This document shows positions 40,617 to 43,024 of a stretch of 64,000 bases of DNA, in pieces (position 1 is the first letter of the stretch; each line of letters starts with the position of its first letter). The position numbers and the translations under genes were made by a program. The notes below the pieces were generated by a model that saw only the letters and a program-made list of their open reading frames with translations, was not told where the DNA came from and searched no databases. This DNA is from Rhabdochlamydiaceae bacterium (GTDB taxonomy: Bacteria; Chlamydiota; Chlamydiia; Chlamydiales; Rhabdochlamydiaceae), in NCBI GenBank assembly GCA_047459655.1, contig JAJREF010000005.1, positions 1 through 64,000 of the forward strand. The letters are read 5' to 3'.

Positions 40617-42665
40617 ATGTTTCAGCTTCCTAAGTTCTTCACTAACTTTATTCTCTTATTTACCCTCTTCACCGTTCTTGTTTATCCTCAAGGGCATGTT
40701 CCCCTTCAACACTCTGAAATAACTCTAAGAATATTACCTGAGTTTTCTGAGATGACTTACGATGATGTCATGAATCTGCTAGATGACTTCGAAACCGGTG
40801 CTATCGAATACAAATATAGCCGAGAAGATATCGAAAAGGCTATAGATCTAGTCATCATGCTTGCAAGGACAGGTCTTTTACCCGACGAAGATCCTGAAGA
40901 GTTAGAAAGAGATATCCAAGAGCTTTTATACGGGGAAGGTTGTTCTACTCTTCCTGCTCTTTTTTATGGGAAAGGAGATACTGTTTTATGTAAAAATTGG
41001 TTTGTTAAATCCTGCCAAAAGACAGGAAAATTCATTAAAAAGAAAAGAAAGGCCATTATTATTGGGGCAGCTGTTGCTGTAGCCGTTATAACCGTAGTTG
41101 GAATTGCAGCTGCTGCAACAGCAGGAGCTGCGGCAGTGGGATCTGCCGCAGATAACTCCACCTCATCAAAATCAAGCACTTCAACTTCTTCTCCAACTGC
41201 TTCTAATCCAACCTCTACTCTATATACTCAAATAGAAGCTCCAACCATATCTTTTAAAGAAAACATAGCTAGCGAGCATTTTTTTCAACCCTCTTTTTAC
41301 AAAGAAACTTCTCAAGAAAAGGGAAGGGTATTAGGATCCCTTTTTGCTCATGATACTCTTCATCAATTTAGTGATCGATTTGCTTTACAACCCAACTTTG
41401 CGACCAATGAACATGATAAAATCGACCATAAATTTACAACAGACTATACGCAGTTGTATTCAAACTCTAAGAAAGAGCCCGATTTCAATACCCTTGCCTA
41501 TCAGCTTCAAGGAGAAAGAGAGCTATCTTCTGGTCACCTAAACCAAGCCATCTATGACTTCAGCCAAGCCATCGAACGCAATCCCACAAGCCCCCTTCCC
41601 TATCTTGAAAGAGGCGTTGCACATTTTGGGCTGGGGCAATACGACCGCTCCTTAGAAGATTATCATCAGTTTGCAGCTCAAGTAGAAAAAACAGAACCAC
41701 TATCAATCCCCTCCTTCAGCTTAGGCTTTGCAAAAGGCCTTCCAAGCGGCATCTGTGAATCGGGAAAAGGTTTGGCCTTGTTTGTCTCTGATGTCGCTCT
41801 ACACCCCGTTCGCACAGGAGGTCAAGTTTGGGAGTCGCTTAAACTTTTAGCAGACCTTACAAAATCTCAGGAGTGGAGCACTTTAAGTGAGGTGTTAGCC
41901 CCAGAAGTTCATCAACTTGTCAAAGAATGGGATACACTTGACTCTGAAGTAAGAGGGCAACTCGCAGGACATGCCTTTGGCAAATACGGAGCTGACATCC
42001 TCATACCAGGAGCCTTAGCAAAAGCTGTTGCCAAAGGAGCAAAGGGAGCCCAAGAGCTAAGCGCTGTCTACAAAACACTCCAAAATGCTGAAAAAGCGCT
42101 CCTCCTTGAGTCTGCAGCTGAGTTAGGCAGTAGCGCCAAGATCGGAGAAGCTTTAACTACCACGTATAATACGGCTCTTCTTGGAGAGAAGTTAGGGTTT
42201 AGTGTTAAAGAAATGAACCAGCTTAAGCAAGCGGGGCAATTGGAGAGAAGCTTTGGACATATTGCAAATAATCCAGTTCTAATGGAATCTGCTCAGAAAT
42301 TTAAGCAAGCTAAGGAGTTTTTAAAGCCTCATACGAAGCAGTTCATGACAGAAGCTAGGGCTAGAGAACTTTTACATGAGGCGGGGATTCCGACTTTTCC
42401 TAGGCCAGACGGTTTGCCACAAGATTGTTTAATTACTGTTTCAGATAAAGGGGCTGGCATGAAATATATGGACCCAAGCAATAAACATACTTATACAAGA
42501 GTAATGCCAGGACAGCCACATAGTTCATTCCCATACCAACAAAAGCCATATGTGAATCAGAGAGTAAATGGAAAATCCTTAGATAAACATGGCAATATAG
42601 TTCCGAATGATGCACCAGAAGCTCATGTACCCCTTGAAGAATTCATATATAGGAGAATTGATTGA
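40617..42665 (+). CDS. Signal/TM and TPR-containing protein with putative C-terminal toxin domain
   Basis: N-terminal hydrophobic segment, Ala/Val-rich TM, TPRs (AIYDFSQAIERNP...YLERGVAH), C-terminal RVMPG.P.S...QQKPYV...NG..LDKHGN...PEAHVPL. Confidence 0.6.
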   Translation: MFQLPKFFTNFILLFTLFTVLVYPQGHVPLQHSEITLRILPEFSEMTYDDVMNLLDDFETGAIEYKYSREDIEKAIDLVIMLARTGLLPDEDPEELERDIQELLYGEGCSTLPALFYGKGDTVLCKNWFVKSCQKTGKFIKKKRKAIIIGAAVAVAVITVVGIAAAATAGAAAVGSAADNSTSSKSSTSTSSPTASNPTSTLYTQIEAPTISFKENIASEHFFQPSFYKETSQEKGRVLGSLFAHDTLHQFSDRFALQPNFATNEHDKIDHKFTTDYTQLYSNSKKEPDFNTLAYQLQGERELSSGHLNQAIYDFSQAIERNPTSPLPYLERGVAHFGLGQYDRSLEDYHQFAAQVEKTEPLSIPSFSLGFAKGLPSGICESGKGLALFVSDVALHPVRTGGQVWESLKLLADLTKSQEWSTLSEVLAPEVHQLVKEWDTLDSEVRGQLAGHAFGKYGADILIPGALAKAVAKGAKGAQELSAVYKTLQNAEKALLLESAAELGSSAKIGEALTTTYNTALLGEKLGFSVKEMNQLKQAGQLERSFGHIANNPVLMESAQKFKQAKEFLKPHTKQFMTEARARELLHEAGIPTFPRPDGLPQDCLITVSDKGAGMKYMDPSNKHTYTRVMPGQPHSSFPYQQKPYVNQRVNGKSLDKHGNIVPNDAPEAHVPLEEFIYRRID

Positions 42666-43024
42666 AGCTTACCAACGAAGAAAAGAAGTACACATTAAAT
42701 GAGTACCTCAGGCATATCGTGCATATGACCGATAAAGAATATCAAACAAGAGTATGGATTCACGCGAAAGGTCCGGAATGTCAAGCGTTTGGTGATGCTG
42801 TATGTGATTTTTTTGATATTGGGGATCCTATCTTAGATCAATATAAGGACTTCGGGCTTACAGATAAGCAATACCAATTACTAAAGAAATTCCGAGATGC
42901 TTTTCGCATTTTTTCTGATGATAACGATTTTCCCGAACTATTCATACATACGCCCGAATGGACAAAAATCACAGAAATGGCAAAGGAAGTCCTAAAAGCA
43001 TTCAACTATCAGAAAAAAAGATAA
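42662..43024 (+). CDS. Putative immunity protein
   Basis: TTG start overlaps the upstream TGA; AGGAGA RBS; DKEYQTRVWI...DFFD...PEWTKITEMA pattern. Confidence 0.55.
   Translation: MKLTNEEKKYTLNEYLRHIVHMTDKEYQTRVWIHAKGPECQAFGDAVCDFFDIGDPILDQYKDFGLTDKQYQLLKKFRDAFRIFSDDNDFPELFIHTPEWTKITEMAKEVLKAFNYQKKR

Follow-up and report, generated by a model that had tools for sequence, protein, structure and literature searches.

What is the pair of overlapping genes at positions 40617..43024 of this chlamydial contig for? The window analyzed here is the whole 64,000-nucleotide stretch of contig JAJREF010000005.1, from a Rhabdochlamydiaceae genome. The first gene (open reading frame (ORF) 40617..42665, + strand) encodes a 682-aa protein made of a constant trunk and a swappable C-terminal tip, which we call tip A (residues 568-682, 115 aa; 42318..42662, +). 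The second gene (42662..43024, +) has a TTG start and encodes a 120-aa partner, hereafter partner A. An earlier note on this DNA had taken the pair for an interbacterial toxin and its immunity protein. This proposal is favored by the variable tips found on one trunk, by the occurrence of the tip on unrelated carriers and by a partner that travels with the tip. Based on these sequence comparisons, we consider it very likely that the two genes are a polymorphic toxin-immunity pair. We assign a probability of roughly 0.7 to the fuller reading: a chlamydial family that combines a constant trunk, interchangeable tips and tip-specific partners would form a polymorphic toxin-immunity system probably aimed at other chlamydiae, in which we predict that the tip is a nuclease and that the partner blocks it.

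The two ORFs are arranged as the earlier note described. The TGA stop of the first overlaps the TTG start of the second (TTGA), and a GGAG is located slightly 5' of it, within a few bases, consistent with translational coupling. The start of the partner in the database is a later ATG, giving 99 aa (P0123); full-length homologues, with 72% identity across 100% of the query, back the 120-aa form. The motifs named in that note all occur in the translation (GFAKG 370-374, GHAFG 451-455, RVMPG 628-632, PY 644-645, DKHGN 656-660 and HVP 670-672).

Tips and partners on a shared trunk

The genome itself contains a second copy of the trunk (C5:174662) that is 96.6% identical to the first over residues 1-543 and then continues into a different tip and partner. 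At the DNA level (blastn), the block shared with the locus of the second copy (L001) spans 40538-42235 of the window with 96.2% identity over 1728 columns. It begins 79 bases 5' of the toxin start, with leader DNA that includes a GGAGG ribosome-binding site (40538..40616, +) and marks the start of the duplicated trunk cassette. The point where protein identity stops places the swap junction near residue 540 (42220..42240, +). The tip of the second copy, tip C, is helical and unrelated to tip A; it has an in-frame stop near its end and is followed by two pieces of another partner family. This second copy (L001 6663-9187; G000:C5:174662-177186) lies between genes that we take to be tolQ-like and tatD-like, and its in-frame stop and split partner could reflect either decay or an assembly error.

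Variable tips on the trunk had been predicted, and they extend well beyond this genome. Among the best 120 of 150 homologues, those with names are mostly chlamydial and a few are labelled Verrucomicrobia. A locus from the window's family encodes a tip identical to the one on a protein named Rhabdochlamydia, in keeping with a placement of that family in Rhabdochlamydiaceae. We classified the C-termini of the query and these 120 proteins (121 in all, a sample that the query biases towards tip A) and found 62 with tip A, 31 with tip B, 18 with tip C, 4 with tip D, 1 with tip E and 5 that are truncated. Tips F and G occur once each in genome loci, giving at least seven tip types on the trunk across Chlamydiota. 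In a quick IQ-TREE phylogeny of the trunk (residues 289-500, 115 rows), the five tip classes require 30 changes, where 4 would be the fewest possible; the branches with strong support by themselves demand 10 or more changes for tip A. The classes are more clustered on this tree than shuffled labels (mean 47.7 changes). Tip D matches DUF4258 above cut-off, and no Pfam toxin or immunity family matches tips B, C, F and G or their partners. Several tips of this system belong to no known family.

The partner changes with the tip. In 79 GTDB loci, which hold 79 trunk matches, partner A is the next gene after tip A in 44 of 46 cases, both misses being near contig ends. The corresponding figures are 10 of 11 for tip C with partner C and 9 of 10 for tip B with partner B. 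Tips D, F and G, all singletons in this set, are each followed by a different gene of their own; of the remaining trunk matches, 4 are broken or short and 5 run off the contig. No cross-pairing of tips and partners was found among the 79 matches. A hidden Markov model (HMM) of partner A, built from 108 homologues, matched all 44 genes behind tip A and none of the 24 behind other tips. The same pairing was seen by eye in 30 loci of a phylum search, which overlap with the 79-locus set.

Two or more tips or partners are present in 26 of the 79 loci, including partners without a cognate tip in the locus. For instance, one locus (L153) has a full toxin gene and then two cassettes that start in the pre-toxin segment of the trunk. 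At the window's own locus no orphan cassette was seen. Orphan partners without a tip pay only if the toxin comes from outside, which argues that the toxin reaches other chlamydial cells. In another locus (L152 8564-14084), one toxin gene is followed by partner-A copies, some of them fragments, in a long tandem series, which may be a true poly-immunity expansion or a long-read assembly artefact.

Searches with the tip retrieved diverse carriers, as the earlier note had anticipated: Rhs, MuF and PT-VENN proteins accompanied by a SCO4402/DUF7945-like partner. Among the 16 and 14 proteins picked for scanning, Rhs cores were found above cut-off in 4 tip-A proteins and MuF domains in 2. Tip A also occurs in plasmid records, one from Leptospira interrogans and one with a toxin-immunity array of Cronobacter, where the tip-A protein has a weak PT-VENN match. 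The next gene after the tip matches the partner profile in both (E 4e-12 in Leptospira and 2e-10 in Cronobacter, in a search of 7 sequences), and the Cronobacter partner is a DUF7945 protein (PF25656, E 1e-23). Among 38 metagenome loci found with non-chlamydial tips, several of them near-duplicates, 22 have a next gene that matched the partner profile at E<=1e-3; in 8 the match was weaker (0.001-0.13), and in the last 8 there was none. Chlamydial trunk segments are present in four of the 22, and the other 18 are without the chlamydial trunk. The tip had no match in phage records and viral contigs.

Across 300 Chlamydiota genomes, the pre-toxin segment matched 108 (E<=1e-5), with up to 8 matches per genome; many of these, at 1e-6 to 1e-14, are weak matches and could come from more distantly related carriers. 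Partner A matched 78 of the 300. Neither the pre-toxin segment nor partner A was found in the 29 genomes of one family (f4), which is likely the Chlamydiaceae. This placement is based on DUF1547, presumably the Tarp repeat, which occurs in that family alone (25 of 29 genomes), and on genome sizes of 1.0-1.4 Mb. The conjugative plasmid pSn of Simkania negevensis carries the trunk, tip C and partner C in an intact-looking arrangement (L113 133-1818). The listed annotation does not include the pSn toxin gene, probably owing to its position at the edge of the record. Four genomes of another family (G034, G045, G061 and G107 of f9) have seven to twelve partner-profile matches each. Those in G034 and G045 are all distant and come without a trunk match, and they are possible stand-alone immunity expansions.

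Fold and predicted chemistry of tip A and its partner

Tip A is highly conserved at a few positions. Over 151 aligned tips, the conserved residues include Y645 (97%), R628 (95%), H670 (95%), G632 (93%), M630 (91%), Q641 (89%) and D656 (85%). The tip lies no more than 25 residues from the C-terminus in 143 of 150 proteins; both results rest on the best 150 of 871 cluster representatives (E<=0.001). The structural model of the tip has a mean predicted local distance difference test score (pLDDT) of 96. A profile search of the PDB with tip A matched chain B of entry 8OWU (E 3e-5). Alignment of the model to 8OWU with VIA gave a Z of 7.5 and a root-mean-square deviation of 2.9, with 74/76 residues aligned at 24% identity, the next row scoring 3.9. 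Together, the model, the 8OWU matches and the conservation point to a PT7-like fold, and we predict that tip A is a nuclease.

The toxin in 8OWU, the one clear structural match of tip A, is PT7(Bc) of Bacillus cereus, which is toxic in Escherichia coli and yeast (bioRxiv 10.1101/2021.10.19.465003). That preprint describes PT7, assayed as mutants, as an EDTA-sensitive metal-dependent DNase with no tRNase activity, and reports that mutating D37 and H47 abolishes its toxicity in vivo (bioRxiv 10.1101/2021.10.19.465003). The wild-type protein is also described as an rRNase (PMC13675652). Tip A resembles PT7/PIM7 (8OWU) in its fold, in an Arg on the central strand and in a terminal H-[IV]-P motif, but it has an extra N-terminal helix and loop. 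PT7 is reported from Firmicutes and Proteobacteria, and the main text does not mention chlamydiae (bioRxiv 10.1101/2021.10.19.465003). In our alignment D37, identified by its ten-residue spacing to a His, faces M630 of tip A. H47 faces Y645 only under the register of the Cronobacter homologue, which keeps both the Asp and the His. Tip A thus shares the fold of PT7 but apparently not its tested pocket residues. From general RNase chemistry, we infer that tip A may use a metal-independent Arg/Tyr/His site; the label 'RNase' that the earlier note gave to the tip is conjectural in the same way.

The likeness to Ntox30 that had been suggested for the tip was not recovered. PF15532 matched neither the tip nor any of 33 aligned members, and a search of the genome at E<=10 gave no match either. 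The motifs described for Ntox30 are RxH, R and THIP (PMC3482391). Ntox17 was matched by 2 of the 33 members (best E 0.004) and Ntox50 by one (8e-5), and the window's tip matched neither. Rehh and YxiD/Ntox50 were set aside as relatives of tip A on the basis of their descriptions, which give other folds. In the Atlas, the neighbours of tip A include Ntox30-, Ntox47- and Ntox17-bearing clusters, making a distant common fold with Ntox30 plausible. We also rejected Ntox10 (PF15520) as the tip family, because its match in the Leptospira protein covers residues 4-99 and the tip homology lies at 106-186. The NCBI name of this protein (L111 4683-5261), 'polymorphic toxin type 10', stems from its N-terminal half; its true tip is a tip-A homologue. 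Tip B shows by eye an R-x-D...H-x-H pattern like that of PT7, and a profile comparison of tips B and A was negative (probability 0.8%).

The earlier note had compared the partner to SCO4402 proteins. The window's partner does match SCO4402 (NF047838) over nearly its full length with an E of 2e-5, but its 24.6 bits fall below the curated cut-off of 50. The same family was matched at E<=0.1 by 107 of 108 partner homologues (best 2e-10). For the window's partner itself there was no Pfam match, a sequence search of solved structures returned nothing credible, and the partner profile does not match the 8OWU entry. By sequence, the partner is a distant homologue of the SCO4402 family, and we predict that it is the cognate immunity protein of tip A. 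The mean net charges of tips and partners are opposite (+3.9 for tip A and -7.0 for partner A). The homologues of the partner, SCO4402 (NF047838) and DUF7945 (PF25656), belong to families whose names state no function, and they would gain a likely immunity role.

The carrier, its possible delivery and competing explanations

The 682-aa protein looks exported, as had been noted: Kyte-Doolittle windows exceed 1.6 at residues 4-22 and again at 143-178, the latter in an Ala-rich helix. It begins with a Sec-like leader (residues 1-24; 40617..40688, +) ending in a YPQ-type motif, which 58 of 113 homologues share. The leader is supported by hydropathy, by the N-termini of homologues and by a low-confidence helix in the model, and it may direct export. 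By hydropathy and homologue N-termini it is kept across the family, and no named trafficking domain was matched. It is followed by a helical N-terminal domain with no family match (residues ~46-105; 40752..40931, +). Next come a conserved Cys125, a basic helix and an Ala/Gly-rich hydrophobic helix that may insert into the membrane (residues 125-178; 40989..41150, +); 71 of 113 homologues have this Cys-basic-hydrophobic motif. Tetratricopeptide repeats (TPRs), which the earlier note had placed in the trunk, are present above the Pfam cut-off (TPR_1 29.8 bits, TPR_11 28.8 bits; residues ~295-356; 41499..41684, +), but there are only two and they form a minor part of it. They were the only matches in a Pfam scan of the protein. 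The helical pre-toxin region (residues 361-500; 41697..42116, +) contains the segment with which the orphan cassettes of relatives start. The full-length model (pLDDT 80, predicted template modelling score 0.70) consists of helices as far as the tip.

The trunk itself is modular in proteins that all end in tip A (P0251, P0252, P0255, P0284 and others). Some of these variant carriers keep the N-terminal domain and hydrophobic helix without the TPR and pre-toxin parts; others have the TPRs and a divergent N-terminus. None of the proteins of 1195-3410 aa in which the trunk was sought scored, which is weak evidence. Feature matches of the pre-toxin region in the Atlas were to unnamed, EndoU-toxin and MafB (0.86) clusters, which we treat as leads only. 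Membership in the MafB family was rejected, as Pfam and NCBIfam scans found no DUF1020/MAFB-N domain and there is no upstream mafA among the neighbours.

If this system works as a weapon against other chlamydiae, the leader would send the trunk protein through Sec, and the basic and Ala/Gly-rich helices would hold it in, or insert it into, a membrane. The helical domain and the TPR pair could then act as a surface anchor or receptor contact, much as has been suggested for MafB-N and further lineage-specific prodomains. When a rival in a common host cell or vacuole is touched, the pre-toxin region would deliver the tip to the rival's cytoplasm. There the tip would cut nucleic acid; since the Asp and His of PT7 appear to be replaced, its site would most likely be a metal-independent one made up of Arg628, Tyr645 and His670. 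The acidic partner would cover the active site. Recombination in the pre-toxin region would swap tips, and old partners would stay as protection. Delivery is the weak link of this scheme; by analogy with what has been put forward for MafB-type prodomains, the most economical route would be export through Sec and then display on the surface.

Several observations weigh against this reading. The leader has no canonical Ala-X-Ala site. The delivery route is unsupported, because any neighbour common to the loci occurs in at most 5 of the 79, leaving no conserved accessory gene beside the trunk, and because full-length fold searches found only TPR-like helices and PT7, with no further structural match for the trunk. 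Foldseek ranks 8OWU first for tip A with an E of only 4e-3, and a VIA Z of 7.5 counts as common on the tool's own scale, even though the row after it scores 3.9. The two tested residues of PT7, D37 and H47, are apparently replaced (Met in 91% and Tyr in 97%), and therefore the activity of tip A cannot be copied from PT7. The window's own tip (+1) and partner (-2) are nearly neutral. For tips B and C, neither a Pfam toxin family nor a solved structure was matched. Finally, the genomes are related, so the locus counts are not independent.

The competing explanation that survives best, although we think it unlikely, is that the tip is delivered to the eukaryotic host (a protist or invertebrate) or to other co-resident bacteria, the partner merely protecting the producer during synthesis. 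PT7 is reported to be toxic to yeast and fungi (bioRxiv 10.1101/2021.10.19.465003), and Amoebophilus lineage-specific prodomains with variable C-termini have been read as host-directed effectors (PMC3482391). The genome also has several secretin loci, none of them linked to the trunk protein. Against host delivery, for Zhang et al. it is the lack of immunity genes that marks toxins of intracellular bacteria as host-directed (PMC3482391), whereas here almost every tip has a partner, and orphan partners persist where their tip is missing. The trunk was also not found in the 29 genomes of the Chlamydiaceae-like family.

Slightly less probable still is a cell-internal role without delivery to other cells, as a toxin-antitoxin or abortive-infection module or a selfish addiction cassette. 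The insertion of the pair at unrelated sites and its presence on the conjugative plasmid pSn would suit such a role, as would the position of the window's pair behind a PADLOC PDC-S01 candidate defence ATPase; functional type II toxin-antitoxin modules have been published from Waddlia. However, this ATPase neighbour occurs in none of the 79 related loci, and neither toxin nor partner matched the PADLOC models of known and candidate anti-phage systems. Conservation within the family extends to the leader and the second hydrophobic helix, and the tip is common to secreted Rhs and PT-VENN carriers. The toxin-first order, the 560-aa trunk, the tip swapping and the orphan cassettes are traits of polymorphic toxins. 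Least probable of all is that tip A is a catalytically dead PT7-fold module for variable surface display or binding, with the partner as its chaperone: the apparent loss of the Asp and His would fit, but R628, Y645 and H670 are 95-97% conserved over chlamydial, Rhs and MuF carriers and the partner is linked to the tip across carriers, as for an active toxin.

We therefore retain the toxin-immunity system aimed at other chlamydiae as the preferred reading. A more ambitious version would make it a phylum-wide weapon of environmental chlamydiae, used between strains in one host cell and lost in Chlamydiaceae, with a Sec-exported carrier, at least seven tips, immunity arrays, and a PT7-fold tip whose metal site is rebuilt to Arg/Tyr/His and which is neutralised by SCO4402/DUF7945 proteins. 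We regard that version as an even bet.

Known systems and genomic surroundings

The closest parallels are Neisseria MafB (MAFB-N), Microscilla-N and Amoebophilus APD1/APD2, which likewise have a signal peptide, a lineage-restricted constant N-terminus and variable tips (PMC3482391). MafB also shares the adjacent cognate partner genes and the orphan cassettes. Unlike these prodomains, the chlamydial carrier has no named trafficking domain and no conserved MafA-like lipoprotein neighbour, but has a TPR pair and an Ala-rich hydrophobic helix. It spans many families of an intracellular phylum and is not confined to a single genus. The orphan arrays resemble those of contact-dependent inhibition (CDI) and Rhs systems: downstream cassettes in L153, L154 and L078 have their beginning within the pre-toxin segment and encode alternative pairs of tip and partner, and L152 has the long partner array. 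In contrast to CDI and Rhs proteins, the carrier is without an Rhs core, filamentous haemagglutinin repeats or a conserved transporter gene.

Zhang et al. 2012 place chlamydiae under several toxin domains (PMC3482391). Their account includes a Simkania URI-nuclease toxin with an adjacent immunity gene, a precedent in a chlamydia read as intraspecific conflict. It is a rare exception there, with a different toxin domain and no phylum-wide carrier named (PMC3482391). Its passages on these toxins and on lineage-specific prodomains name no chlamydial carrier, and its Additional File 1 may bear on novelty (PMC3482391). A full-text literature search, with most subscription papers outside its reach, found no description of the chlamydial carrier. 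The carrier appears to be a new one; polymorphic toxin systems themselves are known.

The same article holds that immunity proteins are mostly missing from intracellular bacteria, and concludes that for the most part these do not fight members of their own species (PMC3482391). For environmental chlamydiae, the opposite is suggested by a trunk detected in about a third of the Chlamydiota genomes sampled, together with its matched partners and the orphan arrays. Such partners and arrays would imply frequent co-infection and kin discrimination inside hosts. The idea is testable, since Simkania negevensis, which has the tip C pair on pSn, is cultured. Toxin-mediated interference is one scenario offered for the unexplained protection of amoebae by chlamydiae against other bacteria (Konig et al. 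2019, PMC6520448). We cite this scenario as context only.

The pair lies in a variable block between topA and a glycosyltransferase cluster. Directly 5' of the toxin, 39217-40527 encodes an AAA_14 + DUF4143 ATPase that matches the candidate single-gene defence system PDC-S01 of PADLOC (E 1e-119) and has a 31% identical paralogue on C3. A promoter scan of 40538..40616 passed no site; a promoter-like site seen by eye upstream (8/12) went unreported by the scan. A hairpin at 43050-43065 was dismissed as being at chance level. Directly after the partner is a 347-aa charged, coiled-coil-like ORF (43067-44110) with no Pfam or PADLOC match and a marginal NCBIfam match. It is absent from the 79 related loci, in which none of the window's own neighbour genes were found. 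Two further ORFs of 237 and 127 aa in the same block (44686-45812) have 31-34% GC and no credible family match. Upstream, topA, with a C-terminal end that we take to be SWIB-like, is split into three ORFs (35000-39027) and an upstream glycosyltransferase looks cut short. Such gene breaks recur in L001 (sdhA, tolB), which suggests frameshift assembly errors.

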